Source of the DNA: Eledone cirrhosa
Lineage: Eukaryota
Length of the DNA stretch: 64,000 nucleotides
NCBI GenBank assembly: GCA_964016885.1
Contig: OZ024743.1
Coordinates: 180,048,001-180,112,000 of the forward strand
Direction: 5' to 3'
The stretch's first letter is position 1; each line of letters opens with the position of its first letter. The position numbers were made by a program, and so were the translations under genes. Under the pieces are notes generated by a model, which was given only the letters and a program-made list of their open reading frames with translations, searched no databases and was not told where the DNA came from. Positions 11,060 through 63,705 of this stretch are shown here, piece by piece.

Positions 11060-11135
11060 ATACATACATACATACATACATACATACATACATACATACA
11101 TACATACATACATACATACATACATACATACATAC

Positions 11136-14100: not shown

Positions 14101-14382
14101 AGCTGCCCACTTGATGTAAACGTTGTCAGAAAAATACAGGAGAAGGAGGACATCTACGGACCATTGATGAGGAGCTTACAAATCCAGTATCCAAGATACA
14201 CCTTTAGCTTCATACCCATCATTATTGGTGCTACGGGTTATATACCAACCCGCTTGGACCAAAGTATGACCGAACTTGGATTTGCGGACAAAAAGCGCAG
14301 CTCCCTAATTCATAGTCTACAAATGGCTGCGATAGCTGGCACCTTCAAAATATGCAAAACATTCTCGCGATTCAAGGGATGA
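11136..14382 (+). CDS. Reverse transcriptase / zinc knuckle / restriction-like endonuclease polyprotein (uninterrupted, probably 5'-truncated)
   Basis: KSPGPD, NYRPIAC, WLDYQKAFDSVPH, GIFQGDSLS, FFVDDLKL, YRYLG, CRLC..HIVASC, RHD, HNRPDIVV..VEISCP..K. The ORF-track start at 10978 is read-through of upstream repeats. Confidence 0.9.
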
Positions 14383-19763: not shown

Positions 19764-19896
19764 ATACACTGCTGTCATATCTACTACTACTAATACTACA
19801 TACACTACTGTCATATCTACTACTACTACATACACTACTGTCATATCTACTACTACTATTACTACTACTACTACTACTACTACTAATAATAATAAT
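19100..19896. repeat. (AAC)n-rich tract (19100-19290) and (ACT)n/(AAT)n compound repeat with four 'tacatacactactgtcatatctac' units (19696-19860)
   Basis: Direct reading. Confidence 0.9.
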
Positions 19897-22800
19897 AAAG
19901 TTTTCTTTATTAACCACAAGGGTTTACATAAAGTAGACATTAAGGACAGTACAGGACAATACAGGACGGTACAAATAGGCAATTCTGCGTGTAAAAAAAA
20001 ACAGAGGATGTAGTAAAATAACAAAGAAAAATTCCCCAATAGGGGGGAGACTTCCGAGGGACATTTGTGGAGAAAGTCCATTAAAAGACCACAGTGACCC
20101 TGACCACCAGGGCAAGTGCCCTCTCCCAGTTTTCCACCTTTAATTTACAGACACATACTCAGAGAAGGCCCATTCATTCGGGCCATACTTGCTTCTCTCA
20201 CCCATCTTTCAACAAAATGCTGGGAAGAGAGCACTTCCCTCTCTACCCTAATTTTCCTTTTCAAATGAAATTTGAAAAAGTTAATCAGGGCATCACCGAA
20301 GAAGTAAGTGCTCGTCTTCAGCCCTTTCAAACGTGTCCACCATACTATCTCTTTCGCCATGGCCACCAGACATATAAAAACTGCCTGCCCTTCCCTGCTA
20401 AAGGAAGGGGGCGGGGCAATCCTCACGATGGACTCAGCTGATAGCTGGATCAGTCCTACACGTGACAGCAGATGTTCGACATAAACCCACAAGTCAGCAA
20501 TGCTCGGACATTGGACGAGTGCGTGCAGGATGGTTTCGTCGCCCTGTGAGCAGCTCGAACATGCGCGGCTGACGGCACCTCCATGCCTGTAGAGTTTATC
20601 CCGAACTGGCAAAGCTCCCCGGTAGCACGGCCAGGCCAGGGATTTCTGGAAGTTGTCCATAGGCCCCGGCCCGAAAGTCCGTCCGAAGATATTGGCTAGT
20701 TGATTTTCGTCGACGCCTAGAGTTTCTCCAAGTACGTCGTCGCTCTTCCCCTCCACTAATCCTTAATAGAACGCCAAGGTGGGGTTTCCACCGATCACAT
20801 TGCCCGATTGGTCGAGGGCTGTGAGCGCCTGAAGACATTCCAGTCTCCAAGCGCTCCCTCTCGGTCTTCGCTTAACCCAGGACTGCAGCTCCGTCAAGTA
20901 GACGAGCTGGGGAAATACGTGTCTAGCAAACGGCGACCACACCTGATCACCGTCGAGGAAGAGGTAGAGATGTCGTAGCCTGAGCGCGTGTCTGCGCATC
21001 ATCAGCCACGGCAAGCCCAGCCCTCCACGTTGCGGGTGTTGACAGCAGATAGACCGCCTGACCATTGGAGCGCGTCCCTTCCACAAAAAGCGAAAGAGCA
21101 AACGCTCCAGCGCAGTCAGGCGGGGCTTAGGACAAGGTACGACGGTCAGGCGGTAGTAGATGACGGACGCGATGTACGCGTTAGCCACCTCCGCTCGACC
21201 TTTCAGGGATAGCTTCCTCTCGGCCCATTTCTGGGTGAGAGAAGCCACCCTGCTCGTGACCTCGTCCCAGTTTCTGTCCGTCTGGAGGTCTGGACCGAAC
21301 CAAACCCCTAGCAATTTAACCGGTCCGTCCGTCCAGCGCCCGACAACGCTGTTGGACGGCATGGACCTGCCTCTCCAGGTGCCGAGCTGCAGGCCCACTG
21401 ACTTTTCCTGTCACCGCTTTGTATTCTCTTAGTGTAGTGCCGATCACCTCGATGTGTTTGGCGTTCGACACCACTACGGTGACATCGTCCGCATATGCTG
21501 ACACGGATCTTCCGTATCCTAGTTCGCGCGGGACCCCCCTCAACGTCTCCAGTATGTGCAGTAATGGCTCGAGAGTCAATACGTACAAGAGGCACGAGAG
21601 GGGACATCCTTGGCGGACCGAGCGCATGATGTTGAACGGTTCCGGAAGGTGACCGTTCACTCTCACTACACAGCAGATGTCGCTGTGCATGGCAGCGATC
21701 CAGCTTCTGAAGACGGGCCCAAAGCCAGCCGCCCTCAGGACTGCCGCTAGGTAACGATGGTCGACCCTATCGAAGGCTTTCGACTGATCTAAATTAATCA
21801 AAGACCCAGCCGTGCCAGGTTCCCTAGCTACCCTCTCTACGATGTATAGCCTTACTAAACCTAATGGACTCTATTCTAATTGTTCTTTTCAGAGCAAACC
21901 ACCACTTATTGTTGACGATGGCCCCCGTCAACGCCCGCTTAACTAGTTCGCTAATCCGGTCTCTGTAGGCCTTGCGCGCTGGTAAGGACGCGTTTAGCTT
22001 CCAGTAGCCGGGTCCTCGTCTATGAAGCCTATCTAAGTCAAGCACACAGATCACGAATTTGTGGTCCGTGTAGCTGACTATCTTGAATTGTGGACAGCCT
22101 ATGCTAGACCTATCTATTTCCCTACAAAATACTCTATCTAGATATGATCTGGATGACCCTATGCGATTTGTCCAAGTCCACATTGGTACATTCGGGAAAT
22201 CCATTCGGTACCTGTCAGACAGATCAAAACGTCTGAGCAGGTTGGTGAGACTCTTGCACCCTCCTTCCCTATCCACTAATCCCACACAATCCCAGCGTGC
22301 ATCTAAGATCCCGTTCCAGTCGCCCACTAACACTAAAGAGCGGGACGTTCCAAGAAAGGTCTCCAGACGCCGGAAGAAATCAGGCCGCCCTGCTCCTGTC
22401 GGGGCATAGACGGCCACTAACCTGAAAGCTTGGCCGTCTCCGCTGGTCACGTCCAGCACCACCAACTTACCTTCTGGGTCCAGGAAGATGGCCCGTATGG
22501 CAAGATCCAAACCTCTCCGAAAAAGCACAGCAACTCCTCCTCCCGATCCCGGACGGCTGGGAGATGCGTACACATCGTAGCCGCCGAAGATCGGTGCGAA
22601 AGCCTGTGCTTCGGAGATTCTGGTCTCGCTGATGGCCACTACATCTATGTTTAGTGACGTGAGGTCGTTGAGCAGGTGGCCCTGGTTCCATGACAACCCC
22701 AAGCCACGCGCATTTATGCTGCCTATTGTGAGTGAGGTCATATTGAAAAGGAGTGTAAAAGATGGGAAAGACCACTTACCTTACTTCTCGTAGGGGAAGG

Positions 22801-24952
22801 ACGGTTTTTCCATCCTTTTCACTGCTTGTGGCCTCCTCAGGAAGGATGTCCTTATAAATCCTCCTGGAGAGTGCTTGTCGGAAGTCTCCGATGTCTTTGG
22901 GGAATTTTTGTTTTAGTGTCATGTACGTTTTCTGTGTGATGCGAGTGATTTGTATGTGTGGAGGTGGTGTGAATTTTTGGGTTGTTGTGTAGTCGTTTTC
23001 TGTGATGCTGGTGTTGTGTTGGATGTAGTGTAATAATTGGTTGTTGTTCAAATTTAATGCTGTGTAGTGTGTATCGTTTTGGTTGTTTTGTTTTGTTTGC
23101 GTTTGTTGTGGGTTTGTTTCTGTTTCGCATTTTGGTGACTTTTGTGCTGTAGGTGATGTTGGTGTTGGGGTTAATGATGGTGATGGTGTTGGTGTTGCTG
23201 GTGTGGATGGTGGCATATCTGTCCTAACTTTTTTGTTTGTTAATTTATTTGTTTCCCTTTGTATTTTGTTTTTGGAGGGGGAAGGAAGAGAATGTTTTCC
23301 TTTTTTGGTTTCTTTTTTTTTCCTGATACCGTTTCCCACTCCTCGTCGTCACAATCTGTCTCCACTTGTGATAGGCCGGGGAGTTGAAAATCCTCCACAG
23401 CCGTTAGTTTTGGTTGTGGCGTGGTGGATGGTGTAGGCGCTGGTGGTAGTTCTGAAGCGTTGGGTGGTGGCGGTGGTGTTGGTTTTGCTGGTGGTGGTGG
23501 TGTTGGTTTTGCTACTTTTGCTGGGGTTGTTGCTGTTATAGTTGCTTCTGTTGTTGCTGCTACAGTTGTTGCTGCCATCTCTGCTACTGGTGGTGCTGAT
23601 GGTTGAGTCACTGGTGTGGGTAGGAGAGGTGGCCTCGACCTTTTAGCCTGAGGGCAGAAAGCCCTTAGGTGGGTTCCTTCACCACAAACGACACACCTGG
23701 GCCTTCTTCCCTCGACAATTACGGTGAGGTAGCTGCGTCAGTGAGGTCTATTACCTCTGGGATCTTCTCAATGCTTTTTTGGTCCGCTTGGATCAGGAGC
23801 TCCATCCCAGAATCGGACCAGTTCTCCTGCTTTTCTTTTGCTATTGCTATTATCTTTGCGTTGGCTTCGATGCCGGCGAGGACGGCCGCTATTAGCCAGG
23901 GAATTTCGATGGCCGGTGGAACGTGGGTCACCCTGATCTTTACGAGTCTCTGGCCACAATAGCTTGGGACGAGTGTTAAGTCGTCACTTCTTAATGGGGC
24001 CATGGAGTGTTCTCTAGCCTCCTCTGGTGTTTCAAAGAACACGTCCACGGTTCCATACTTCTGCCCACGTCTGATGTGGGTTTTTCTTGCCCACACATGT
24101 CCCAAAGCTTTTTGGATTTGGGACTCGGATGCCCGTTCCACTCGGCGTGATTTTACATTTATTGTTCGATACGACACGGTGCAGGCGCCGATGCTCCATT
24201 TTATTAGGTGTGTGTGTGGGGGGGGGGGGGGTTTGATCATGTACCCATCTTTCTTTACCATTTTTTGGCATTTTCTAATTCCTCCTGAGTTACCGTAAAT
24301 GCTTCGCACTGTTTTGTTACTCTGGCAAAACTCAGGGTGATTTTTTTAATGTCATTGTTGTTGTTGTTGCTATCGTTATTTTTGTTATTATTAATTTTAG
24401 TTTCAGTTGTGGTGGTGGTGACGTCAGTGGAGTTCGGTTTGGAAGAGTCCATTTTGGTTGAAAATGTTTCGACATCACGAGTTGATTTATTTTTTCCTTC
24501 TGTTTCTGTTGTCGCGGTGGTGGTGGGGGTGGTGGTTGTCGCGGTGGTGGTGGTGGCTTTAACACCTGCAGTCATTGGTAATGGCGGGAAATGAATGTCT
24601 GCCTGAGACAAATTTAAAATATTGCTAGTGCTTAAATTGTTTGTGTTGGCAAACGTAGTATCATTTACAATGGTGGTGTCGGTGTGAGGTGTTAATTTGT
24701 GAGGAAGGCTCTCAGCTGCTTGGTGCAGAGGTGAATTAGCCATTTTTGTACAAAGAAATGTTTTGATAATCATAAAAGTTTAAATTTTGGGCACAAGGCT
24801 CCAATCTTTTTGGGTGTCCTTTTCGGAAAACAATGTATGTGCGCTTATATATAGTTAACAATAAAAATTTTCCATAAATGGCAATTTTTAACAAACGTAA
24901 ATAACAAACCTTTGCGGAGCTCACGATGATACGATTTACTACGTAGGTCGCC
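19897..24952 (-). mobile_element. Tx1-like (L1-clade) LINE family A, both ends intact, ~0.8-kb internal deletion
   Basis: The 5' end GGCGACCTACGTAG is shared with 44686 and 57753. ORF1 24743-22776 is frameshifted (RRM-like core, CVVCGEGTHLRAFC knuckle). ORF2 22741-20145 has an APE domain (GSINARGL, AISETR, GDWN, SYLDR, TDH) and RT (DQSKAFDRV, QGCPLS, YADD). Deletion junction ~21846. (AAT)n on both sides. Confidence 0.93.
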
Positions 24953-25104
24953 AATAATAATAATAATAATACTCATACTACTACTACTGCTGCTTCTAAA
25001 TAACTAATACAACACTAAACCAAAGCAAAAACAAAACAAACAAAAATAAAGGAATACGGATGGATGTAAGTGACTAGATTTTTTGATTGTATTACAAGTG
25101 TTCA

Positions 25105-40897: not shown

Positions 40898-40923
40898 ATT
40901 ATTATTAGTATTATTATTATTAT

Positions 40924-43900
40924 GCATTTATCTTGCTTTATGTTCATACGAGTTATCACCAAGTCACAACCAGTGACCTCAAGAGACAACAAGGTCCGCC
41001 ATGTTCAAGAAAGAACATACATACTCACACATGCATCTTTAGTGTTTAGACTTGTGATGTACTTATATTGACAGAATCTTCCTTAGTATATGGCAGTTCC
41101 CATTAGTACTATCTTTTGTATTTCTCCTATACGCGGGTTTCCTGGGATTTGCGATAAGTAATCATTAGACCCCTTAGGTATCATTCCTCGAGCGCCTACA
41201 ACCACTGATATTGTTTTATTTCTCAATTTCCACAGTTTTCCAATTTCTATCTCCAGGTCCTTATACTTGTCAATTTTTCAAATGTTTTTATAGATACATT
41301 CTTGTCTATTGGAACGGAAATATCAATTAGCAGGCATACCCTCTTTTTAAAGTCCTTCAATATTACATCAGGTCTATTTGCATCTATTTTTCGGTCTGTT
41401 TGGATGCTAAAGTTCCACAAGATTGAGATGTGATCTTTTTCAAGTATGGGAGGTGGCTGATGCTCCCACCAATTCTTTTGATGGGGCAGGTCAAAATGCT
41501 TACACATTATCCAATGTATGTATTGTGCAGCTCTGTCATGCCTGTTTAGGTATTCGGTTGGAGCTATAGGACTGCACATTGAAATTATATGGTCAATGAT
41601 CTCTGGTTGTTTTTTACATACACGGCATAATGGGCTGCATCCATTTTTTATTACGTTGGCTTGGTAATTTTTTGTTGGCAGACACTGATCTTGTGCTGAT
41701 ATAATCAGTCCTTCAGTCTCCGATTTCAGTCCAGAGGATGCCAACCACTGATGGGTTAAAGTTTTGTCAACATCAGGATTGTTAGCTCGTTCTGGGTATT
41801 TTCCATACAGAGGCTTTTCTTGCCATTTCTAAGCCAGTTTCTGTAGCAGTTCTTTCTTTGCAGTTACTTTTACCTGCTTTGCTTTTTCTGTGTTTTCCAT
41901 TTCAGCAGTAAATGGGACTTCTGAAATCTGTAGTCCATTACTGTATCTTTGTGCATCTTTTGTAATGGAGTATGATCTTTTGATGCTTTCGTGTTTCAAA
42001 CGAGTTTGATCATCCAATCATGTGATTCCCTTAGATATGTAGATAATCCAATTGTTGCAGCTTTCAACGCAATGTCTAACTGGATTAACCCACGTCCTCC
42101 TTCTTTCCTAGGGAGATATATTCTATCTGTATCTGCCTTAGGGTGATGCATTCTGTGCATGGTTAAGAATGTTCGAATTTTTGTATCGAGCCTACGGATC
42201 TCTATGCTTGACCAGTTGATGACATTGTAACTGTAGGTTACAACTGGTATGGCAAGCGTGTTTATGGCATCGATCCTATTCCTTGCATTCAATTCCGTTC
42301 TTAAGATTGCTCTTACTCTGCGGTAACATTCCTTCCTTATCCTTTCCCTCATTGTCGAGTGCTTGATTCCGTCTCCTTCACAAACACCTAGATATTTGTA
42401 AGTTTCCTCTTGATCAAGTTCTCTTATCACATTCCCTAGATAAAGATTAATGTCTGAACTTTTCAGCAGCTTTCCTCTGGTGAACGCTGCTTTGGCGCAT
42501 TTATCCAGTCCAAACTCCATTTTAATGTTATCACTGAACTGCTCCACAGTGGATAATAGCCCTTGCAATTGTTCATCATTTTTTGCAAATAGTTTCAGGT
42601 CATCCATGTAGAACAAGTGATTAATGGTTTTGTCATAGACTTTATATCCATGTTTTGTTTCATTGAGCATTTTACTTAATGGTATAAGTGCGATGCAGAA
42701 TAAAAGCGGTGATAAAGAGTCACCCTGAAAAATTCCATAATTAATATTAACTTCTCCAGCTTCCAGTGATTTTTTTTCACTATTCAAAAGGAGTGTCGTT
42801 TTCCATGTCTTCATACTGAATGACAAAAACCTCCTGACAACGGGGGATATTTTGAAAATCTCTAAACATTTTTCAATCCAACTGTGTGGCAAACCATCGA
42901 ATGCTTTTTTATAATCTATCCAAGTAATTGATAGATATTTGTGTCTATTATGACAATCTTCCAGTATCATTTTGTTAACCAAAAGCTGATCCTTACAGCC
43001 ATATGAGCCTCGTTTACACCCTTTCTGCTCAATGGGAAATAGGTCATTTGTTATCAGGTGGTCATATGTATACTCAGTTAGGACTGATGTTAAAATGTTA
43101 TACATTGTGGTCAAGCAAGTTATCGGTCTGTAATTTTTGGGATTGTTTGTCTCATCATTCTTCGGAAGCAGGAATGTAATGCCGTTAATTAGCCATGATG
43201 GTATCTTTTCTGGCTCCTTAACTATTTCATTGTAAAGTTGGGCTAACAGCTCATGAGACTCTGTGAAGGCATTTATCCAAAAACTTTGTATTTTGTCTTT
43301 TCCTGGGGATTTCCATTTGCTGGTTCTTCTTAGAGCCAAACGCAACTGTTCAACTGTTATATTTTCCCATATTTGTTCCTCAAGGTGAGGTGTATCTTTC
43401 ATTTGTCTGTCTATCCATGGGGCATGTATATTATGAACTTTTTCTTCGGCCCACATGTTTCATTTTCCCTTCGCTGACTTTGTGCCAATAGCTTGATCTG
43501 ATCAAATTCTATATCAGTTAGTAACTTTTTTCTTACAATATTTCTTCGAATATTGGCTAGTGTGTTACTGTCAATATAGCCTCTGTTTTCGGGATGTTTC
43601 TTTTTCCAGTTGATATATGTCTGTTCTGTATTCGATGTATTTGATGGGTAGTACATGGCAGTGTAGAAAGCCTCAAGGACTTCTTTATTATCTTCCCTTG
43701 ACCATTTTTCTCTCTTTTTCTTTGGATTTCTTGGTGGTGAGCATGGAGGGCCAATAGTAGGGGTATTCCGGTTATGGGAGGTCTCCAGTACCGAAGTGAT
43801 GGGAAGGTTTGAACCATTAGCTGATTTTTCGAGCCCAGTCTGGTTCGTCTCTGAGGGACGCGGCCCTTTTTTACCCGGGTGACGGCCGATCCGGTGTGAG

Positions 43901-44158
43901 ATTTTATCATTAGACATTTACTTTATTTTGTCGCGTTTTATCCTTATCCGCCAAGGGTTAATCATTTCGCGTTACCACTTCTAGAACGAGTGTCAACCAA
44001 GACTAGAGGGGTCGTTCTCCCCTAGAGACACGGCTATTCCCCGTCGGCCGCCATCCCGGTATTTGTTGGTCACGGGGTTTTCTTTTTTGTTGTTTTGTTA
44101 AATTGTTATTATCATGAGTGGTTCCTTAATGTGAGCATTGCGTGATTTAAGAATGAAA
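40924..44158 (-). mobile_element. R4/Dong-type RLE LINE family C, copy 1, (TAA)n-flanked, ~750-bp deletion at ~43455
   Basis: ATG 43917 (KKREKWSRED..FY), KSPGKD, DYKKAFD, FQGDSLSP, FYMDDLKL, CRVC..HIISMC, RHD, ANRPDVIL..IDISVP. Confidence 0.92.
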
Positions 44159-44167
44159 TTATTAATA

Positions 44168-44215
44168 ATTGTCTCCACTCCAGGCACAAGGCCAGGAATT
44201 ACCCAGTGCATTACA
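44168..44215 (-). mobile_element. SINE 3' fragment
   Basis: 'gcacaaggccaggaattacccagtgcattac'. Absent at the paralogous site (~56605). Confidence 0.65.
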
Positions 44216-44630
44216 ATAATATAATATACTTTTTGCTGAAGTTGCCTGTTATTGTTGTTGGCTATGTCGGTGGTGGTGCTGGGGCTTTTTATATTGTTGG
44301 TGGGGAAGGGGGGAGCCAGCAGTGCCATAGTTGTTTACTTTTGGCCGGTGGCCGGGTCACTAAGTCAATCTATTTATATCTTTTGCTAACCTCTCCCTTG
44401 TCTAGTGATACCGCCACCTTCCCCTTTCTTAAGTTAACAGAAGGTAATGGAATAGTGGTGGTAGCAATGAAGGATTGGTGGCGGCGGTGATGAGATAGTG
44501 GTAGCAATGATGGATGGAGTGGTGGCGGCGGTGGTGTTGTCGTTACTGAGTTTTGTAGTTTTGTTTGATCTGTAGTATCTATGCGTTTGTGTCGCGTATG
44601 TTTAATATATTTGTTGACATATTCTCTTAA
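44216..44630. repeat. Duplicated spacer; paralog at ~56607-57240
   Basis: Colinear sequence 'atatactttttgctgaagttgcctg...gttgacatatt'. Confidence 0.88.
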
Positions 44631-44631
44631 A

Positions 44632-44681
<50 letters not shown>

Positions 44682-47621: not shown

Positions 47622-50600
47622 GAATGCCATGTTTGACGGAGACTCGGCTCTGTAAGGTATAGTAATTTTTAACCGCTATAACAATTGTAAATTGTTTAAA
47701 ACTTTAACCAAATTGTAGATAAAATCACCCTCCTCCTGGTGAGAGGGGTCTTTCTGCTCGTTATTTGGCCGTTCGGGGTTAAATAACCACTTATTGGGGT
47801 TTTGTGCCCAATATTCATTTTAAACCCAAAATAAACATGGCTACAAAAAAAAATTTTAACAAGTCACTCCCACTCATTCCGTCCTCTTCTCCCTCAATCG
47901 TCACTACATCAGAGAGAAAATTGTCTCTCTCTCCCTCCCTTCTCTAAATGTGGTGTCGCCTCTTTCGCAAGCGACGCCATTAAAGAAAAAGTAAAATATA
48001 GTTTCTGATAGCTTTCACCAAGAGCACGTGCATACCGTGGAACATTTCTCCACGACGACGACAACGACGAAAAATGTGTGCGGTAAATATGGAAAGTCAT
48101 TTCATTCGTCTGACGTCATGAAGAATAGCAGTAACAGCCGTAATAACAGCAACAGCAGCAACAATGACAAGGAAAACACTAGTAGCAGCCGCTACAACAT
48201 CAGCAGCAGCATAAACAACAACAGCAGCAGCAGCAACAGCAAACGCAGCAGCAGCAGCAGCAACAGCAACAACATCATCAGCAGCAGCAACAACAACAAC
48301 CACAGCAACAGCGTGGGCGGCGGTCGTAGTACTAGCAGCAACAACAAAATTAACAACAGCTCTGACGACAACAACAACAAGAAAGAAAAACCAATCTGGT
48401 TTGCAGGTATCGCAAAGAACCTGGAAACCATCCTCATAACAAATGAGGAATTACAGTAAGCGAAGAAGATGGTGACGAAAACCGGACACCGAGCAATCTG
48501 CAAGGCAGCTGAAAACATTTTTGAAACCCAACAGCACTGTACGGTCACGGACCGTACAGTAAACACAAAATCACGTAGGGTTGAAAGAGCCACAGAGGCT
48601 CAAATACGATAAGCCTTAGGGTCTGTGTGGCAGCGGAAAACGCATATCACCCGAGGCAAGAAATATGCCACTGTGGACTTGCTTTTTGCCACACCCCAGG
48701 AGGCAAAGGCTCAAGGTTTAGTGACCCTAAGGAGCGAGGAAATGGTGTTGGTGCCCTCCTACTGCGGGCAAAAAATTGTGAGGGTCAAACTGAACCACGT
48801 CCCGGGATGGCCTCTTCTTGCCTGGCCGCGTCTGTCCTCGTCGGAATCGAGGACAAAACAACGGTACTGCAAGTACAGAAAAAAGTACGAGAAGATTGGG
48901 TCGGCACCTCCATTGAGATGTTAATCCAAACCAACCAGGAGTGCATAGAAGCTATCCAGGATGTGATAGACTTCGATAACGGCACTCAACTACCCATAAG
49001 TGCTGAGGGCAAACGCCCGAAATACTTTCGCTGTGGATCGAAGACTCACCTCGGGGCCTTCTGCAATGAGAAGACCATGAGAAAGGAGAAAATCCCCTCC
49101 TTCCGAAACCGGCTCCACTGCTACCAGCAACAGGACAGGCGGCAAGCAGGAAGGATAGGTCCATGGCACCCATACCCAGGCCACGGAAATCAAGAACAGC
49201 AGCAGCAGTGGAAGTAATAACAACAACAACAGTAATAAAAACTGCAGCTGCAACAAAGACTACACTGCAAACATCACCAACAACAACAAGTGAAAGAGTG
49301 GAGCTGGTAACCATCCCAACTCCTGACCTCACAGAATCGGACATGGAGTGTGAGGTGGGAGAGGGATGGCAAAAGGTCGCAAGAAGCACAAACGCAGAAG
49401 CAGCGCATCGTCGCCTTCGAAAAGGGAGGAAAGAAATGAAAAAAGGGTAACGGCTACTACAAAGAGACTTACAGCAGCAACACCACCAACACCATCACCA
49501 CCCACATTAGCACCACCATCACCACCGGCGGCAACCCCACCGCAAACAACAACAACACCTTCAACACCACCACCACAGCACCAACATCGCAAACACAACA
49601 ACAAAACACACACACCCAGCATCAACGACAATAAAATACCAGAACCACACCCCACCCCCAGAAAAACAAATGCACAGCAATAAATACACACAACAAGAAA
49701 CTAATGACTTACATAATTGAACACACAGACATTTCACAGCACGACTACATAATATCAGCACCAATCAAAACACCAACGAACATAAGACTGGTAAGAATAG
49801 CACAGAAACAATACACAAACATTAAAATGAAATTCCCCAACGCAGTTGGTGATTTCAGAGACCTAGGAAGGACACTCGACCGGAGAGTATATTCGGATAT
49901 ACTCACAGAAGAGCCGACGACCAGCTGAAAGGGACGATCCGTTGAAAAGGGATGGAGAAACCATCCTTCCTCTACGAGAAGTAAGGTAAGTGGTCTTTCC
50001 TGTCTTTTCCACTCCATTTCAACATGACCTCACTCAGAATAGGCAGCATAAATGCGCGTGGCTTGGGGTCGTCACGGAAGCAGGGCCTCCAGCTCATCGA
50101 CCTCAGGTCACTAAACATAGATCTAGTGGCTATCAGCCTGACCAGAATCTCCGAAGCACGGGCATTCGCACCGATCTTCGGCGGCTACGATCTGTACGCA
50201 TCTCCCAGCCGTCCTGGATCGGGAGGTGGAGTTGCTGTGCTTTTTCGAAGAGGTTTGAATCTCGCCATACAGGCAATCTTCCTGGACCCAGAAGGTAAGT
50301 TGGTGGTGCTGGACGTGACCAGCGGAGAAGGGCAAGCTTTCAGGTTAGTGGCCGTCTATGCCCCGACAGGAGCTGGGCGGCCTGATTTCTACCGGCGTCT
50401 GGAGAACTTTCTTGGAACGTCCCGCTCTTTAGTGTTAGTGGGCGACTGGAACGGGATCTTAGATGCAAGCTGGGACTGTGTGGGATCAGCGGATAGGGGA
50501 GGAGGGTGCAAGAGCCTCACCAACCTGCTCAGGCGTTTTGAACTGTCTGACAGATACCGATTGGATTTCCCGAATGTGCCAATGTGGACTTGGACAATTC

Positions 50601-53457
50601 GCATAGGGTCATCCAGATCATATCTAGATAGAGTAATTTGTAGGGAAATAGATAGGTCTAGCATAGGCTGTCCACAATTCAAGATAGTCAGCTACACGGA
50701 CCACAAATTCCTGATCTGTGTGCTTGACTTAGATAGGCTTCATAGACGAGGACCCGGCTACTGGAAGCTAAACGCGTCCTTACCAGCGCGCAAGGCCTAC
50801 AGAGACCGGATTAGCGAACTAGTTAAGCGGGCGTTGACGGGGGCCATCGTCAACAACAATTGGTGGTTTGCTCTGAAAAGAGCGATTAGAATAGAGTCTA
50901 TTAGGTTTAGTAAGGCTTTAGCTATAGAGAAAAATAGAGCAGAGGGAAAACTAGTTAGAAAATTAGACGAGGCGCTTAGCAAAGGCATCGCGACCGAAGT
51001 ACTTGCGGCGAAATTGGCCCTTGACCAATTCTTCAATGCAAAGAACGAAGGCTGCGTTGTCAGAGCTAGGGTGCGTGCTCTCAGACACGAGGGTGGAGGC
51101 GCATCGTGGCAACAAAGCCACAATCCGGTCTTTGGTGGACCATGACGGGCGCATGCTACTCGATCCCGGGAAAATGTGTGAAGCTTTTCAGCGACACTTC
51201 GCACAGCTGTTCGGAGGCAGCGGCGGGCCGGATCGAGGGATGGAATTTAGTGTCTACCTCGACGGACTGCCGCGGCTCTCGGCCACTGAGGCGGAGTGTT
51301 GTGAAAATCCGGTAACAGCTGCTGAGGTACGGGAGGCAATGACTGGCCGCACTAGGGGTAAATCGCCTGGTTTGGATGGTCTGCCCTATGAATTTTACGT
51401 ACAAATGTCAGACTTGTTCGGAGGCCTCTTGGCGGACATCTACTGCAACTGGCAACAGAATTCCCAGCTCTGTGAGACGCGGAGTGGAGACCCTGCTGAG
51501 AAAGGAACCGAACAAGGGGGATAACATAGATAATTTAAGTGCTAAACACAGAGTTCAAGATTTTGGCCAAGGTGCTAGCAAAGAGGTTGGCGCGTGTCGT
51601 TGGTAGTCTGGTGGGAAAGGCGCAAACATGCGCTATTCCCGACAGATCCATCCACGAAAACCTCCACCTCATGCGATACATCGTAGAGAGGGTAGCTAGG
51701 GAACCTGGCACGGGTGGGTCTTTGATCAATTTAGATCAGTCGAAAGCTTTCGATAGGGTCGACCATCGTTACCTAGCGGCAGTCCTGAAGACGGCTGGCT
51801 TTGGGCCCGTCTTCAGAGGCTGGATCGCTGCCATGCACAGCGACATCTGCTCTGTGGTGAGAGTGAACGGTCACCTTTCGGAACCGTCCAACATCATGCG
51901 CCTGTTCCACCAAGGATGTCCCCACCAAGTCCCTCTTGTACGTATTGACTCTCGAGCCATTACTGGACAAACTGGAGACGTTGAGGGGGGTCCCGCGCGA
52001 ACTAGGATGCGAAAGAGCCGTGTCAGCATATGCGGACGATGTCACCGTAGTGGTGTCGAACGCCAAACACATCGAGGCGATCGGCACTACACTAAGAGAA
52101 TACGAAGCGGTGACAGGAGCAATGATCAACCAGAAAAAGTCAGTGGGCCTGCAACTCGGCACCTGGAGAGGCAGGTCCATGCCGTCCAACTGCGTCGTCG
52201 GGCGCTGGACGGACGGACCGGTTAAATTGCTAGGGGTCTGGTTCGGTCCGGACCTGCAGACGGACAAAAACTGGAACGAGGTGACGAGCAGGGTGGCTTC
52301 TCTCATCCAGAATTGGGCCGAGAGGAAGCTATCCCTGAAAGGTCAAGCGGAGGTGGCCAACGCGTACATCGCGTCCGTCAACTACTACCGCCTGACCGTC
52401 GTACCTTGTCCTAAGCCCCGCCTGACTGCGCTGGAGCGTTTGCTCTTTCGCTTTTTGTGGAAGAGACGCGCTCCGATGTCAGGCGGTCCATCTGCTGTCA
52501 ACACCCGGTACGTGGAGGGCTGGGCATGCGTGGCTGATGACGCGCAGACACGCGCTCAAGCTACATCTCCACCTCTTCCTCGACGGTGACAGGTGTGGTC
52601 GCCGTTTTCTAGACGCGTCTTTCCCCAGCTCGTCTCCTTGACGGAGCTGCAGTCCTGGATCAAGCGAAGACCGAGAGGGAGCGCTTGGAGACTGGAATGT
52701 CTGCAGGCGCTCACAGCCCTCGACCAATCGGGCAATGTGATCGGTGGAAACTCAACCTCGGCGTTCTATAGTGGATTAGTGGAGGGGAAGAGCGACGACG
52801 TACTTGGGGAAACTCTAGGCGTCGACGAACATCAACTAACCAATCTCTTCATAAGAACTTTCGGGCCGGGGCCTATGGACAACTTCCAGAAATCCCTGGC
52901 CTGGCAGTGCTACCGACCGAGGAGCTTTGCCAGTTCGGGATAAACTCTACAGGCACGGAGGTGCCGTCAGCCGGGAGTGTCCGAGATGCGCGCAGGGCGA
53001 CGAAACCTCCCTACACGCACTCGTCCAATGTCCGAGCATTGCAGACTTGTGGGTTTATGTCGAACACCTGTGTCGCGTATCGGACGGATCCGGCAATCAG
53101 CTGAGTCCATCGTGAGGATTGCTCTCTTCCCAGCATTTTGTTGAAAGATGGGTGAGAGAAGCAAGAATGGCCCGTGTGAATGGGCCTACTCTAAGTATGT
53201 GTCTGTAAATTAAAGGTGGAAAACTGGGAGAAGGCACTTGCCTGGTGGTCAGGGTCACTGTGGCCTTTTAATGGGCTTTCTCCACAAATGTCCCTCGGAA
53301 GTCTCCACTGTATTGGGGAATTTTTCATCGTTATTTTTTTGTTACATCCTCTGTTATTGTTTTTCACACGCAGAAATGCCCATTTGTACCGTCCTATATT
53401 GACCTGTACTGTCCTTAATGTCTACTTTATGTAAACTCTTGTGGTTAATAAAGAAAG
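47622..53457 (+). mobile_element. Tx1-like chimera: divergent 5' UTR/ORF1 joined to family-A ORF2 and 3' UTR
   Basis: ATG at 47837, with an ORF1 only distantly similar to A and B. From ~49944 the sequence follows family A. ORF2 50024-53208 is frameshifted. Confidence 0.88.
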
Positions 53458-53467
53458 TATTATTATC

Positions 53468-53572: not shown

Positions 53573-56500
53573 GCATTTATCTTGCTTTATGTTCATACGA
53601 GTTATCACCAAGTTACAACCAGTGACCTCAAGAGACAACAAGGTCCACCATGTTCAAGAAAGAACATACATACTCACACATGCAACTTTAGGTGTTTAGA
53701 CATGTGATGTACTTATATTGACAGAATCTTCCTTAGTATATGGCAGTTCCCATTAGTACTATCTTTTGTATTTCTCCTCGGGTTTCCTGGGTTTTGCGAT
53801 AAGTAATCATTAGACCCCTTAGGTATCATTCCTAGAGCGCCTACAACCACTGGTATTGTTTTAGTTCTCAATTTCCACATTTTTCCAATTTCTATCTCCA
53901 GGTCCTTATACTTGCTCAATTTTAGGTTACTACTGGTATGGCAAGCGTGTTTATGGCATCGATCCTATTCCTTGCATTCAATTCCGTTCTTAAGATTGCT
54001 CTTACTCTGCGGTAACATTCCTTCCTTATCCTTTCCTTCATTGTCGAGTGCTTGAATCGGTCTCCTTCACAAACACCTAGATATTTGTAAGTTTCCTCTT
54101 GATCAAGTTCTCTTATCACATTCCCCCGATCAAGATTAATGTCTGAACTTTTCAACAGCTTTCCTCTGGTGAACGTTGCTTTGGCGCATTTATTTAGTCC
54201 AAACTCCATTTTAATATCATCACTGAACTGCTCCACAGTGGATAATAGCCCTTGCAATTGTTCATCATTTTTTGCAAATAGTTTCAGGTCATCCATGTAG
54301 AACAGGTGATTAATGGTTTTGTCATAGACTTTATATCCATGTTTTGTTTCATTGAGCATTTTACTTAATGGTATAAGTGCGATGCAGAATAAAAGCGGTG
54401 ATAAAGAGTCACCCTGAAAAATTCCACAATTAATATTAACTTCTCCAGCTTCCAGTGATTTTGATTCACTATTCAAAAGGAGTGTCGTTTTCCATGTCTT
54501 CATACTGAATGACTGACAAGAACCTCCTCATAACGACAGATATTTTGAAAATCTCTAAACATTTTTCAATACAACTGTGTGGCAAACTATCGAATGCTTT
54601 TTTATAATCTATCCAAGCAATTGATAGATTTTTGTGTCTATTATGGCAATCTTCCAGTATCATTTTGTTAACCAAAAGCTGATCCTTACAGCCATATGAG
54701 CCTCGTTTACACCCTTTCTGCTCAATGGGAAATAGGTCATTTGTTATCAGGTGGTCATATGTATATTCAGTTAGGAGTGATGTTAAAATGTTATGCATTG
54801 TTGTCAAGCAAGTTATCGGTCTCTAATTTTGGGGATTGTTTGTCTCATCATTCTTCGGAAGCAGGAATGTAATGCCGTTAACTAGCCATGATGGTATCTT
54901 TTCTCGCTCTTTAACTATTTCATTGTAAAGTTGAGCTAACAGCTCATGAGACTCTGTGAAAGCATTTATCCAAACATTTGGTACTTTGTTTTTTCCTGGG
55001 AATTTCCATTTGTTGCTTTTTCTTAGAGCCAAACGCAACTGTTCAACTGTTATATTTTCCCACATTTGTTCCTCAAGGTGAGATGTATCTTTCATTTGTC
55101 TGTCTATCCATGGGGCATGTATATTATGAACTTTTTCTTCGGCCCAGATCTTTTCCCAGAATTCTTGCACTTCCTCCTTGGGTGGTATTGATTTAGCAGT
55201 TATCGTTGACTTGCCAATTTTTCTGTAGAAGTTTCTTTCGTTGTTTTTGAACATATTATTGTCCTTATAGAATCTAGATCGTTTTTCAAAGTGCCTTATC
55301 CGAGCAGCTTTGGCCGACACTTTTTGCTCGATTATTTCTATCAGCATGTCTATGTCACTTGTTGATTTTATACTGTATTTTCTTTTCAATTTTCTAAGTT
55401 TAGCTTGTCTAACATTTTGACCTACTTTGTAGTTTGTTAAAATTTCTGTCAGATTGGAGAAGGTTTATTTAGCGATTGATGTTCTCTTGCCAAGTAGATT
55501 TCTTGAGGGAATTCCTTTGTTTTTTTTCATTTTCACTCCACATAAGTGAGTGGTGACTTTAGCCGATGCATAATAGAGATCATTTAAATCAGTAATGTTT
55601 AGTTTGTTTGAGAATTATGTTAGTCTTGTGTATTATCTTTTGGTTCGGTTTGGAGTTCCCCCATGTCAGATTCTTTCATTTTAATCCATTCGATCATAAT
55701 TTCATCCTTCAAGTTGGCAAGTTCATTCTCATTCATTTCTTTATCATTTACTATCTCATTGTTTTCATTTGGAGTTTCATCTTGAGCATGCACTCCCTCC
55801 ACTTTTTCGATCCTTTCTTTAATTTGTTCTGTTGTCAGTGATTCCGCCCCAACCCTGGGATTCGAAGTGTTACAATTTACCTCGTTTTCACTGACGCATG
55901 TTTCATTTTCCCTTCGCTGACTTTGTGCTAATAGCTTGATCTGATCAATTTCTATATCAGTTAGTAACTTTTTTTTAACAATATTTCGTCGTATATTGGC
56001 TAGTTTGTTACTGTCAATATAGCCTCTGTTTTCGGGATGTTTCTTTTTCTAGTTGATATATATCTGTTCTGTATTCGATGTATTTGATGGGTAGTACATG
56101 GCAGTGTAGAAAGCCTCAAGGACTTCTTTATTATCTTCCCTTGACCATTCTTCTCTCATTTTCTTTGGATTTCTTGGTGGTGAGCATGGAGGGCCAACAG
56201 TAGGAGTATTCCGGTTATGGGAGGTCTCCAGCTCCGAAGTGATGGGAAGGTTTGAACCATTAGCTGATTTTACGACCCCAGTCTTGTTCCTCTCTGAGGG
56301 ACGCGGCCCTTTTTGACCCGGGTGACGGCCGATCCGGTATGAGATTTTATCTTTAGACATTTACTTTATTTTGTCGCGTTTTATCCTTATCCGCCAAGGG
56401 GTAATCATTTCGTGTTACCACTTCTAGGACGAGTGTCAACCAAGACTAGAGGGGTCGTCCTCCCCTAGAGACACGGCTATTCCCCGCCTGTCGCCATCCC

Positions 56501-57699: not shown

Positions 57700-57752
<53 letters not shown>

Positions 57753-60700
57753 GGCGACCTACGTAGTAAATCGTATCATCGTGAGCTCCGCAAAGGTTTG
57801 TTATTTCCGTTTGTTAAAAATTGTCATTTATGGAAAATTTTATTGTTAACTGTTTATAAGCGCACATACATTGTTTTCCGAAAAGGATACCCAAAAAGAT
57901 TGGGGCCTTGTGCCCAAAATTTAAACTTTTATTATTATCAAAAAAATTTCTTTGAAAAAAATGGCTAATTCACCTCTGCACGAAGCAGCTGAAAGCCTTC
58001 CTCACAAATTAACACCTCACACCGACACCACCATTGTAAATGATACTACGTTTGCCAACACAAAAAAAATATAAGCACTAGCAATATTTTAAATTTGTCT
58101 CAGGCAGACATTCATTTCCCGCCATTACCAATGACTGCAGGTGTTAAAGCCTCCACCACCACCACCACCGCGACAACCACCATCACCACCACCACCACCA
58201 CCGCGACAACCACCACCACCACCACCACCGCGACAACAGAAACAAAAGAAGAAAAAAATAAATTAACTCGTGATGTCGAAATGAAATCAAGCAAAATGGA
58301 CTCTTCCCCCCCCCCCCCCAAAGACGACTGACGTCACCACCACCACAACTGAAACTAAAATGAATATTAACGATAGCAACAACAAAAACAATGACATTAT
58401 AAAACCCCCCCTCAGTTTCGCCAGAGTAGCAAAACAGTTCGAAGCATTTACGGTAACTCAGGAGGATTTAGAAAATGCCAAACAAATGGTAAAGAAAGAT
58501 GGGTACAGGATCAGCCTCACCCCCCCCCCACACCTAATAAAAATGGAGCATCGGCGCCTATGCACCGTGTCGTATAGAACAATAAATGTAAAATCGTGCC
58601 GAGTGGAACGGGCATCCGAGTCCCAAATCCAAAAAGCTTTGGGACATGTGTGGGCAAGAAAAACCCACATTAGACGTGGGCAAAAGTATGGACCCGTGGA
58701 CGTGTTCTCTGAAACACCAGAGGAGGCTAGAGAACACTCCATGGCCCCATTAAGAATTGACGACTTCACACTCGTCCCAAGCTATTGTGGCCAGAGACTC
58801 GTAAAGATCAGGGTGACCCACGTTCCACCGGCCATCGAAATTCCCTGGCTAATAGCGGCTGTCCTCGCCGGCATCGAAGCCGACACGAAAATAATAGCAA
58901 TAGCAAAAGAAAAGCAGGAGAACTGGTCCGGATCTGGGATGGAGCTCCTGATCCAAGCGGACCAAAAAAGCATTGAGGAGATCCCAGAGGTAATAGACCT
59001 CACTGACGGCAGCCACCTCACGGTAATTTCGAGGGCAGAAGACCTAGGTGTGTCGTTTGTGGTGAAGGAACCCACCTAAGGGGTTTCTGCCCTCAGGCTA
59101 AAAGGTTGAGGCCACCTCTCCTACCCACCCCAGTGACACAACCATCAACACCACCAGTAGCAGAGATGGCAGCAACAACTGTAGCAGCAACAACAGAAGC
59201 AACTATAACAGCAACAACCCCAGCAACAGTAGCAAAACCAACACCACCACCACCACCACCAGCAAAACCAACACCACCACCACCCAACGCTTCAGAACTA
59301 GCACCAGCGCCTACACCATCCACCACGCCACAACCAAAACTAACGGCTGTGGAGGATTTTCCACTCCCCGGCTTATCACAACTGGAGACAGATTGTGACG
59401 ACAAGGAGTGGGAAACGATATCCGGAAGAAAAAAAAAGAAACCAAAAATAGAAAAAATTCTCTTCCTTCCCCCTCCAAAATCAAAATACAGAGGGAAACA
59501 AATAAATTAAGAAACAAAAAAGTTAGGACAGATATGCCACCATCCACACCAGCATCACCAACCCCATCAACCCAAACACCAACACCATCACCATCATTAA
59601 CCCCAACACCACCATCACCTACACCACAAAAGTCACCAAAATGCGAAACAGAAACAAACCCGCAACAAACGCAAACAAAACAAAACAACCAAAACGATAC
59701 ACACTACACAGCATTATACTACATCCAACACAACACCAGCATCACAGAAAAAGACTACACAACAACCCAACAATTCACACCACCTCCACACATACAAATC
59801 ACTCGCATCACACAGAAAACGTACAGGACACTAAAACAAAAATTACCCAAAGATATCGGAGACTTCCGACAAGCACTCTCCAGGAGGATTTATAAGGACA
59901 TCCTTCCTGAGGAGGCCACAAGCAGTGAAAAGGATGGAAAAACCGTCCTTCCCCTACGAGAAGTAAGGTAAGTGGTATTTCCCATCTTTTACACTCCTTT
60001 TCAACATGACCTCAATCACAATAGGCAGCATAAATGCGCGTGGCTTGGGGTCGTCATGGAACCAGGGCCACCTGCTCAACGACCTCAGGTCACTAAACAT
60101 AGATGTAGTGGCCATCAGCGAGACCAGAATCTCCGAAGCACAGGCTTTCGCACCGATCTTCGGCGGCTACGATGTGTACGCATCTCCCAGCCGTCCGGGA
60201 TCGGGAGGAGGAGTTGCTGTGCTTTTTCGGAGAGGTTTGGATCTTGCCATACGGGCCATCTTCCTGGACCCAGAAGGTAAGTTGGTGGTGCTGGACGTGA
60301 CCAGCGGAGACGGCCAAGCTTTCAGGTTAGTGGCCGTCTATGCCCCGACAGGAGCAGGGCGGCCTGATTTCTTCCGGCGTCTGGAGACCTTTCTTGGAAC
60401 GTCCCGCTCTTTAGTGTTAGTGGGCGACTGGAACGGGATCTTAGATGCACGCTGGGATTGTGTGGGATTAGTGGATAGGGAAGGAGGGTGCAAGAGTCTC
60501 ACCAACCTGCTCAGACGTTTTGATCTGTCTGACAGGTACCGAATGGATTTCCCGAATGTACCAATGTGGACTTGAACAAATCGCATAGGGTCATCCAGAT
60601 CATATCTAGATAGAGTATTTTGTAGGGAAATAGATAGGTCTAGCATAGGCTGTCCACAATTCAAGATAGTCAGCTACACGGACCACAAATTCGTGATCTG

Positions 60701-63655
60701 TGTGCTTGACTTAGATAGGCTTCATAGACGAGGACCCGGCTACTGGAAGCTAAACGCGTCCTTACCAGCGCGCAAGGCCTACAGAGACCGGATTAGCGAA
60801 CTAGTTAAGCGGGCGTTGACGGGGGCCATCGTCAACAACAAGTGGTGGTTTCCTCTGAAAAGAGCAATTAGAATAGAGTCCATTAGGTTTAGTAAGACTT
60901 TAGCAATAGAGAAAAATAGAGCAGAGGGAGAATTAGTTAGAAAATTAGACGAGGCGCTTAGCAAAGGCATCGCGACCGACGTACTTGCGGCGAAATTGGC
61001 CCTTGACGAATTCTTCAATGCAAAGCACGAAGGCTGCGTTGTCAGAGCTAGGGTGCGTGCTCTCAGACACGAGGGGACAAAATCCGTTCAATGGGCTCGA
61101 GTGGCGGAGGCGCGTCGTGGCAACAAAGCCACGATCCGGTCTTTGGTGGACCACGACGGGCGCATGTTACTCGATCCCGGGCAAACGTGTGAAGCTTTCC
61201 AATGACACTTCGCTCAACTGTTCCGGGGCAGTGGCGGGCCGGATCGAGGGATGTACTTTAGTGTTTACCTCGACGGACTGCCGCGGCTCTCGGCCACTGA
61301 GGCGAAGTGTTGCGAAAGACCGATAACAACCGCTGAAGTACGGGATGCAATGACTAGTTGCACAAGGGGTAAATCGCCTGGTTTAGATGGTCTGCCCTAT
61401 GAACTTTACGTACAATTGCCAAACTTGTTCGGAGGCCTCTTGGCGGACGTCTACTGCAACTGGCAACAGAACGGGAGAATTCCCAGCTTTGTGAGCCGAG
61501 GAGCGGTGGCGCTGCTGAGAAAGAATCCGAACAAGGGGGATAACATAGATAATTTTAGGCCCATAACTCTGCTAAACAAAGAGTTCAAGATTTTGGTCAA
61601 GGTGCTAGCAAAGAGGTTGGCGCTTGTCGTTGGTGGTCTGGTGGGAGAGGCACAGACATGTGCCATTCCCGACAGATCCATTCACGACAACCTCCACCTC
61701 ATGCGATACATCGTAGAGAGGGTAGCTAGGGAACCTGGCACGGGTGGGTCTTTGATCAATTAATTCAGTCGAAAGCCTTCGATAGGGTCGACCATCGTTA
61801 CCTAGCGGCAGTCCTGAGGGCGGCTGGCTTTGGGCCCGTCTTCAGAGGCTGGATCGCTGCCATGCACAGCGACATCTGTTCTGTAGTGAGAGTGAACGGT
61901 CACCTTTTGGAACCGTTCAACATCTTGCGCTCGGTTCGCCAAGGATGTCCCCTCTCGTCCCTATTGTACGTATTGACTCTCGAGCCATTACTGCACAAAC
62001 TGGAGACGTTGAGGGGGGTCCCGCGCGAACTAGGATGCGGAAGATCCGTGTCAGCATATGCCGACGATGTCACCGTAGTGGTGTCGAACGCCAAACACAT
62101 CGGCACTACACTAAGAGAATATGAAGCGGTGACAGGAGCAATGATCAACCAGGAAAAGTCAGTGGGCCTGCAGCTCGGCACCTGGAGAGGCAGGTCCATG
62201 CCGTCCAACAGCGTCGCCAGGCGCTGGACGGACGGACCGGTTAAATTGCTAGGGGTCTGGTTCGGTCCAGACCTCCAGACGGACAAAAACTGGGACGAGG
62301 TGACGAGCAGGGTGGCTTCTCTCACCCAGAAATGGGCCGAGAGGAAGCTATCCCTGAAAGGTCGAGCGGAGGTGGCTAACGCGTACATCGCGTCCGTCAT
62401 CTACTACCGGCTGACCGTCGTACCTTGTCCTAAGCCCCGCCTGACTGCGCTGGAGCGTTTGCTCTTTCGCTTCTTGTGGAAGGGACGCGCTCCGATGGTC
62501 AGGCGGTCCATCTGCTGTCAACACCCGCTACGTGGAGGGCTGGGCTTGCCGTGGCTGATGATGCGCAGACACGCGCTCAGGCTACGACATCTCCACCTCT
62601 TCCTCGACGGTGATCAGGTGTGGTCGCCGTTTGCTAGACAAGTTTTTCCCCAGCTCGTCTCCTTGACGGAGCTGCAGTCCTGGGTCAAGCGAAGACCGAG
62701 AGGGAGCGCTTGGAGACTGGAATGTCTTCAGGCGCTCACAGCCCTCGACCAATCGGGCAATGTGATCGGTGGAAACTCCACCTTGGCGTTCTTTAGGGGA
62801 TTAGTGGAGGGGAAGAGCGACGACGTACTTGGAGAAACTCTAGGCGTCGACGAAAATCAACTAGCCAATCTCTTCGGAAGGACTTTCGGGCCGGGGCCTA
62901 TGGACAACTTCCAGAAATCTCTGGCCTGGCAGTGCTACCGGGGTGCTTTGCCAGTCCGGGATAAACTTTACAGGCATGGAGGTGCCGTCAGCCGGGCATG
63001 TCCGAGATGCGCACAGGGCGACGAAACCGTCCTGCACGCACTCGTCCAGTGTCCGAGCATTGCTGACTTGTGGGTTTATGTCGAACACCTGCTGTCACGT
63101 GTAGGACGGATCCAGCTATCAGCTGAGTCCATCGTGAGGATTGCCCCGTCCTCTTCCTTTAGCGGGGAAGGGCAGGCAGTTTTTATCTGTCTGGTGGCCA
63201 TGGCGAAAGAGATAGTATGGTGGACACGTTTGAAAGGGCTGAAGACGAGCACTTACCTCTTCGGTGATGCCCTGATTAACTTTTTTAAATTTCATCTGAA
63301 AAGGAAAATCAGGGTTGAGAGGGAAGTGCTCTCTTCCCAGCATTTTGTTGAAAGATGGGTGAGAGAAGCAAGTACGGCCCGAATGAATGGGCCTTCTCTG
63401 AGTATGTGTCTGTAAATTAAAGGTGGAAAACTGGGAGAGGGCACTTGCCCTGGTGTTCAGGGCCACTGTGGTCTTTTAGTGGTCTTTCTCCACAAATGTC
63501 CCTCGGAAGTCTCCCCCCTATTGGGGAATTTTTCTTTATTTTATTTCATCCTCTGTTTTTTTTACACGCAGAAATGCCCATTTGTACCGTCCTGTATTGT
63601 CCTGTACTGTCCTTAATGTCTACTTTATGTAAACCCTTGTGATTAATAAAGAAAA

Positions 63656-63656
<1 letters not shown>
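57753..63656 (+). mobile_element. Tx1-like family A, full-length (~5.9 kb), lightly mutated
   Basis: ORF1 57961-59971 (frameshifts). ORF2 60006-63415 with stops at ~60575, 61205 and 61763. (ATT)n at 57700-57752 and 63657-63710. Confidence 0.94.

Positions 63657-63705
<49 letters not shown>

Follow-up and report, generated by a model that had tools for sequence, protein, structure and literature searches.

Two copies of a LINE family in the genome of Eledone cirrhosa raise the question of whether their 5' UTR holds a selected, cis-acting RNA fold and, if so, what such a fold does. The window analyzed here is a stretch of 64,000 nt (contig OZ024743.1, positions 180,048,001 to 180,112,000); all coordinates are window positions, and (-) denotes the minus strand. 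An initial annotation had described a hairpin whose loop can pair with a downstream segment and had proposed either a ribozyme or a translation-initiation element.

The element and the fold in its leader

Both copies are decayed members of one LINE family and lie on the minus strand. In copy 1 the remains of the ORF and the 3' UTR occupy 40923..43917 (-), with a reverse transcriptase domain (RT; PF00078) at 41996-43459 followed downstream by a cysteine-histidine motif and a PD..D-type nuclease motif, both recognized by eye; the ORF is broken, about 740 nt are gone relative to copy 2, and (TAA)n stands at the end. The rest of the 5' UTR of copy 1 (44078..44634, -) is 5'-truncated, since full-length copies extend to 1135 nt before the AUG. 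The leader of the family contains 11 upstream AUGs in these 1135 nt. L065, a natural copy at another place in the genome, has an intact frame of 1112 aa. A single ORF with an RT and a C-terminal restriction-like nuclease (motifs by eye) fits the R4/Dong clade, and family copies are flanked by (TAA)n on both sides, as expected for a (TAA)n target. The family was taken to be R4/Dong-like from these ORF features and from the TAA junction, which it shares with B. mori Dong as described in PMC3774820; the name R4 or Dong is carried by none of the 16 protein matches. The first genome survey returned 1569 candidates.

The window consists mostly of nested LINE remains, among them AP-endonuclease/RT copies at, for example, 19863-24986, 49943-53466 and 57700-63693, together with an RT frame at 10972-14382 and with short repeats that sit within TAA runs. 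A TATA-like block followed by UGACCCGG lies at 44379-44352 (-), about 430 nt before the AUG in the window family, and both also occur in a second, distant R4-like family of the same genome (L078-L096). Elsewhere in this genome (C2:353612555-353642046) a head-to-tail array of at least seven element copies was seen, with a period near 4911 nt and short TAA runs between the copies.

The fold in the leader, termed D2, is a predicted H-type pseudoknot of 42 nt at 43981..44022 (-) in copy 1 and 56424..56465 (-) in copy 2. It is ordered as a 4-bp stem, a 7-nt loop, a 4-nt linker, a 3-bp hairpin with a 6-nt UUG loop, 2 nt, the 7-nt partner of the first loop and AG. In copy 1 the stem is formed by 44022-44019/44011-44008 and its loop (44018-44012) pairs with 43989-43983; the linker and the small hairpin (44003-43992, loop starting in UUG) lie between stem and partner, and the closing AG stands at the end. 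D2 starts at -105 from the AUG and the element has its 5' end at -1135, which gives D2 a mid-5' UTR position.

The four 7-mers on which the initial annotation was built, and the ATG at 43917, lie on the minus strand where it had placed them, and both the loop-partner pairing and the double change from A-U to G-C between the copies are real. In relatives the long stem CUAGGGG/CCCC(U)CUAG that it had drawn shrinks to 4 bp, without conservation of the CUA extension. The CCCCG/CGGGG part of its upstream CCCCGU/(A,G)CGGGG stem belongs to a neighboring fold, D1; the A variant of copy 1 proved to be a rare change, the position reading GG in 45 of 60 copies, GA in one and another change in two, with the search string unmatched in 12. 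The G at this position closes another stem in the family. The most conserved part of D2, the 3-bp hairpin with its UUG-starting 6-nt loop, was absent from that annotation.

The chance of a perfect 7-nt partner within 40 nt is about 0.001 for one given loop. Folding of the whole region gave no signal (z +0.61), an outcome to be expected when pseudoknots are not modelled; the isolated 42-mer of copy 1 folds into the short stem and the small hairpin.

A 34-place pattern in which both covarying sites were left free matched the genome at 997 places, with G-C at 125 or more (counted with a 38-mer), A-U at 840 or fewer (by subtraction), G.U at 18, A.C at 11, U/U at 2 and C/U at 1. The window copies represent two subfamilies, A-U and G-C, copy 2 belonging to the latter. 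Over 420 aligned columns of 120 copies the subfamilies are cleanly split at three substitutions, two of which are the partners of the pair; these two sites had served to define the groups, and four of the 120 copies are mixed. Inside the family the double change is one inherited event; it is suggestive, and being a single event could not alone carry the claim. Since G.U copies are not significantly commoner than A.C copies within the family (18 vs 11, p=0.26), an active G.U intermediate lineage is not shown. In the reads of four contig runs both paired variants occurred as minor letters in two runs, which come from one study.

Covariation across distant elements and the published block

Scanning metagenome contigs yielded 79 related loci, to which a viral search added an eightieth; best-segment identities were 30-64%. 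The same 42-nt layout was found in several distant R4/Dong-like loci. A pattern on the small hairpin matched 92 places in the same genome as the window, against one for the control; 30 of these loci were fetched, and among them three or more families are RTE-like LINEs, judging by eye from their AP-endonuclease-like frames.

Covariation was assessed on a gapless alignment of 18 rows, from which one duplicate, L135 (shifted by 1 nt), L160 (with a longer loop), one locus missing the anchor, and 16 first copies of one RTE-like family in which a TA repeat has replaced the 5' half were excluded. The 14-pair structure was paired in 90.1% of cells against 75.3% in shuffled alignments, and its double-sided cells numbered 34, against 8.8 (0/500). 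Taken by itself, the pseudoknot helix gave over the 18 rows 90.5% against 70.4% and 25 double-sided cells against 6.5 (0/500), and controls in which this helix was slid were 26-37% paired. Several of the 18 rows are old copies of related families, a kinship that the shuffle significance ignores, and the number of pseudoknot-helix pairs with a double change was unexceptional (5 vs 3.7 shuffled; 78/500). Covariation is present in three D2 helices. Among the 252 cells, the non-canonical ones comprised 32 G.U and 8 A.C; the excess of G.U therefore favors the sense RNA.

A model built without the pseudoknot recovered 20 matches in 91 sources, including the window copies and relatives. The new matches outside the training set were L135 and the second copies of L099, L177, L178 and L181; read by eye, none of them has lost more than one of the 7 pairs. 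Over all 16 distinct rows, broken ones included, the pseudoknot helix was 85.9% paired. The 5' half of the first D2 copy has been lost to a TA repeat in 16 of the 30 fetched loci (0-3 of 7 pairs). Tandem D2 pairs about 70 nt apart were seen in L177, L178, L181 and L099; in the tandem of the RTE-like family the TA repeat that replaced half of the first D2 is an expanding one, and the second D2 is intact.

Of the 80 related loci, 73 gave no D2, a 5' end being missing from many of them, and D2 was not found either in the five loci searched of the second R4-like family of the same genome. On an unrooted RT tree of 34 rows, in which some rows scored as D2-absent have short 5' ends, D2 (7 rows; L160 labelled by eye) requires four changes, at least three of them forced, and stands on both sides of a 100/100 branch; gain and loss are indistinguishable because the tree is unrooted. 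The D2 pattern had no match in the viral contigs. A single match in a prokaryote genome, in which the pseudoknot pairing is missing, was taken as chance.

A conserved mid-5' UTR block has been reported in RTE LINEs, Ingi-3_AC, R4-1_ADi, and Ceph- and avian SINEs (Kojima 2018, PMC5786205), with speculation on regulator binding; in the main text of that paper the words 'pseudoknot' and 'stem' do not occur and no structure is proposed. Judged by sequence, D2 is a divergent member of this RTE 5'UTR / Ceph 3'-half block. The two are alike in layout, spacing, mid-UTR position and the YUAG-CC-UUGG..GGCA core of the relatives (PMC5786205). The D2 of L107 lies at 138-179 from the junction, and the block of R4-1_ADi is published at 135-179; the sequence of R4-1_ADi was not found in a search of the supplement (PMC5786205). 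The published core was matched by eye in L099, L147 and L185, and the window copy lies at the diverged end of the range, with GUC/GAC for GCC/GGC and CCCC for GCUC. The window family also lacks the downstream GGAGAAGGAAAAC...AAACC block, of which L099 and L185 have one.

Among the families of the supplement, all seven pairs are kept by eye in 14 of 15 non-avian LINE families, all three Ceph-SINEs and 12 of 13 AviRTE entries (PMC5786205). This amounts to 29 of 31, the remaining two keeping six pairs; two entries that do not span both sides were excluded from the 31. Fifteen different loop 7-mers still pair by eye in the published families, with examples such as AGGUGGA/UCCACCU, AGAUGAU/AUCAUCU and AGACCGG/CCGGUCU (PMC5786205). 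The UUG loop is replaced in the AviRTE sequences of the supplement, and therefore no universal rRNA-pairing motif is visible. The D2 fold was not found in the literature searched, and subscription journals, figures or the rest of the Kojima supplement may hold one; within that literature the sequence block is known, and no description of the pseudoknot fold or of its chain in R4-like elements was found.

The block might instead act as double-stranded DNA, as a transcription-factor site, or the pairing might be due to chance. Regulator binding was raised by Kojima (PMC5786205), and the within-family change, a single event with no significant difference between the numbers of G.U and A.C copies, is compatible with such a reading. 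The covariation in three helices, the G.U bias toward the sense strand and the pairing retained, by eye, by 15 loop 7-mers of the published families argue against it and make it highly improbable. We regard the fold itself as almost certainly real: the selected cis-acting RNA pseudoknot that the initial annotation had suspected in an R4/Dong-like 5' UTR is supported by covariation across distant elements.

Neighboring folds, 5' ends and processing

D2 lies in a chain of further predicted folds. D1 (44031..44077, -) starts at -160 from the AUG and consists of a stem (44077-44073/44043-44039), an A-rich linker and a 4-bp stem (44059-44056/44047-44044); in copy 1 its 8-nt loop pairs with 44034-44031, and the bottom pair of the 4-bp stem is broken. 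By eye, D1 covaries among the window family, L147, L160 and L135 (CCCCG/CGGGG vs CCACG/CGUGG; CCGG/CCGG vs CCAG/CUGG; GGC/GCC vs GGU/ACC).

D2b (43933..43956, -) is a minimal pseudoknot, a 4-bp hairpin with the loop pairing GCG/CGC, that ends 15 nt before the AUG. Its loop pairing changes to GCA/UGC in L097, L104, L160 and L099, and in each of the five lineages 13-16 nt separate its end from the homologous AUG. D2 itself ends 48-71 nt before the AUG in five of six R4-like lineages and 162 nt before it in L099; in the broken copies of the RTE-like families the distance from D2 to the first Met varies between 72 and 614 nt. D2b is overlapped by an upstream ORF of 15 codons (43918..43965, -) whose stop codon abuts the main AUG; this ORF was not seen in the second family, and possibly represents a reinitiation signal or chance.

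D3 (43861..43895, -) is a pseudoknot within the first codons of the ORF. Pairing was complete (100%) over 12 rows, and double-sided cells numbered 15, against 3.7 in shuffled alignments (0/500). D3 is kept at the DNA level and read in different frames across lineages; the conservation of the region as DNA across reading frames accounts for an odd conserved N-terminal peptide. D3 with a second hairpin and pairing at the ORF start spans 43895-43810 (-) in the window, and the region is kept also in L097, L104, L106, L126, L127, L133, L137, L160 and L164.

Other 5' regions were seen to be arranged differently. tRNA-like heads (by eye) stand in place of D1 or D2 at the start of the R4-like elements L120, L126, L127, L157 and L164, and a repeated small hairpin, GGGAG..AACCC followed by GACAGAAAA, occurs in the 5' UTR of L117, L128 and L146 and in the RTE-like L185.

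HDV-like ribozymes of R2, R4, Dong, RTE and L1Tc are likewise pseudoknotted RNAs from the 5' region of non-LTR elements, and an IRES-like role has been proposed there; D2 differs from them in lacking an HDV core or an Rfam match and in lying about 1 kb inside the 5' end. A self-cleaving ribozyme formed by D1 and/or D2 would process the element RNA; in B. mori Dong and in Ascaris R4, HDV-like ribozymes do cut at the 5' junction (PMC3774820). D1 is moreover 5'-terminal in many relatives, several of which have no Rfam ribozyme match.

The copy starts bear on this reading. The 5' ends of 60 of the first 62 of the 997 matches were surveyed, two being skipped as duplicate or adjacent; an earlier survey was discarded as biased, its loci being the top full-length matches. 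Relative to the AUG, 31 of the 60 copies start at -1135 to -1124, 25 are spread from -1095 to -253, and only four start 3' of -200, all at different places (-199, -195, -178 and -120). No start shared by these copies was found at D1 or D2, with an anchor that is blind 3' of about -100. Searches of Rfam at gathering score gave no match in the window, in 20 loci or in 16 loci (twister, twister sister, pistol, hatchet and hammerhead included), and scans by E-value returned one and two matches, at chance level only. An HDV descriptor (P3/L3 core C plus CG, GG after P1, J4/2 C), run without a positive control, matched none of 14 regions. The misfit to the HDV topology noted in the initial annotation was thereby supported, and the Rfam comparison that it had called for yielded no family. 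Its ribozyme branch was not supported: the fold lies about 1 kb inside a defined 5' end, and the same block sits mid-UTR and 3' of tRNA-type SINE heads, where cleavage would remove the promoter (PMC5786205). We consider self-cleavage very unlikely.

Two further HDV-like arrangements were rejected. Pairing GACCAAGA at long range to the hairpin loop of D2 would give an HDV-like helix order; by eye, this pairing is not kept in L147 or L160. D3 does not serve as an HDV core either, since the strand proposed for P1 pairs with sequence downstream and the descriptor gave no match.

All 10 aligned relatives have a D1-type form, related to that of the window, that begins exactly at the (TAA)n junction. 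This terminal form is 96% paired, four of its five helices hardly vary, and both pseudoknot helices are invariant and thus without covariation support. The candidate, a nearly invariant double pseudoknot, occupies the first 80 nt after TAA in L117, L119, L121, L125, L129, L130, L131, L134, L143 and L146. Rfam had no match for these ten loci. The fold may be an exonuclease block or a new ribozyme.

Class 1 xrRNAs are described as a three-way junction with a 5'-end pseudoknot and a second, latching pseudoknot, a 15-16 nt ring and resistance to Xrn1 (PMC8374639). D2, or more probably D1, might likewise be an exonuclease-blocking fold that protects uncapped RNA or sets the 5' end after read-through of (TAA)n. 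Like class 1 and plant-virus xrRNAs these folds are compact pseudoknots, and the predicted helix order of the 5'-terminal D1 of the 10 relatives (5'-end pairing, three-way junction, loop-to-3' pairing) would fit the class 1 description (PMC8374639); structured 5' ends have also been reported to stabilize R2 donor RNA (PMC12222951). By comparison, neither D2 nor the window D1 has the three-way junction and double pseudoknot or an Rfam match, 5' ends do not pile up at D1 or D2 in the window family, and the pseudoknot pairs of the terminal D1 never vary. On this evidence an exonuclease block is quite unlikely.

A possible role in ribosome recruitment

The reading that we tentatively prefer, short of even confidence, is that D2 is a portable, host-facing module that would help to recruit the ribosome near the start codon. 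The evidence on D2 comprises covarying pairs, a sense-strand bias, recurrence in unrelated clades and other covarying pseudoknots nearby. D2 occurs in RLE-type elements and in APE-type RTE-like LINEs of the same genome, and its block also in RTE, Ingi, R4 and SINEs (PMC5786205). Given how far these proteins appear to differ, a single binding site present in all of them is not the most economical reading. A host machine would be the simplest candidate for a partner that serves RLE-type and APE-type LINEs as well as SINEs. Among host machines the ribosome is favored because of the 11 upstream AUGs, the near-constant spacing between D2 and the AUG in five of six R4-like lineages, the fixed spacing of D2b and the precedent of IRES-like initiation proposed for R2 and L1Tc 5' RNAs (PMC6765202).

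D2 would act on the element's own transcript. A long leader with 11 upstream AUGs is poorly suited to scanning, and D1, D2 and D2b may for this reason serve jointly as an internal-entry or reinitiation platform, on which D2b would set the position of the AUG. Going a step further, SINEs might retain the block because contact with the ribosome would let them capture newly made LINE protein, in the way that Alu does by means of SRP9/14. The translation-initiation branch of the initial annotation remains plausible. Several observations weigh against ribosome recruitment: the fixed spacing to the AUG belongs to D2b rather than D2, the spacing of D2 is loose in the RTE-like families, and D2 is absent from the five loci searched of the second R4-like family. 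The sharp 5' end of the family could come from an internal promoter, with a capped start that makes an IRES unnecessary, and the retention of the block by SINEs fits protein binding or stability equally well.

Protein binding would make D2 a docking site for a LINE-encoded protein, in RNP assembly, in completion of reverse transcription or in second-strand cleavage, with SINEs keeping it for mobilization. The R2Bm 5' RNA, which includes a pseudoknot region, binds protein and activates second-strand cleavage (10.1101/2023.04.07.536001), and 5' UTR parts of RTE have been retained by independent SINE families (PMC5786205; PMC4844689). The R2Bm pseudoknot, a protein-binding 'claw', is also a structured 5' RNA near the start of an RLE-type ORF; the likeness is one of structure and position, and D2 differs in crossing clades and entering SINEs. 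D3, at the ORF start, is the closest analogue and a better candidate for docking than D2. The same D2 fold is found in RLE-type and APE-type elements with very different proteins, and D2 is patchy on the R4-like tree; a docking role for D2 is accordingly unlikely. Three-stem H-type pseudoknots such as the preQ1-II riboswitch and the coronavirus frameshift element have a hairpin inserted in loop 3. D2 resembles them in topology only, has no Rfam match and lies outside the main ORF.

Beyond ribosome recruitment by D2, a broader and more doubtful picture may be drawn, in which the LINEs of metazoans draw on a common set of very small, exchangeable pseudoknots that forms a cellular IRES-like platform. 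D2 would be its ribosome-docking part, hence the 'conserved body' of SINEs, and D1, in R4 elements that target microsatellites, a fold not described before that defines the 5' end, either as an exonuclease block or as a new class of ribozyme.

On the conservation of SINE bodies and RTE 5' UTRs across animals only one paper dealing with the block was found, whose guess is DNA-binding regulators (PMC5786205). A predicted 14-pair fold with natural compensatory variants makes the question directly accessible to disrupt-and-restore tests in both LINEs and SINEs. Small parts for gene insertion with retrotransposons could also be derived from D2. Should ribosome recruitment or an exonuclease block prove true, it would account for the translation of retrotransposon RNAs that are uncapped or have long leaders, and for the hijacking of LINE proteins by non-coding elements.
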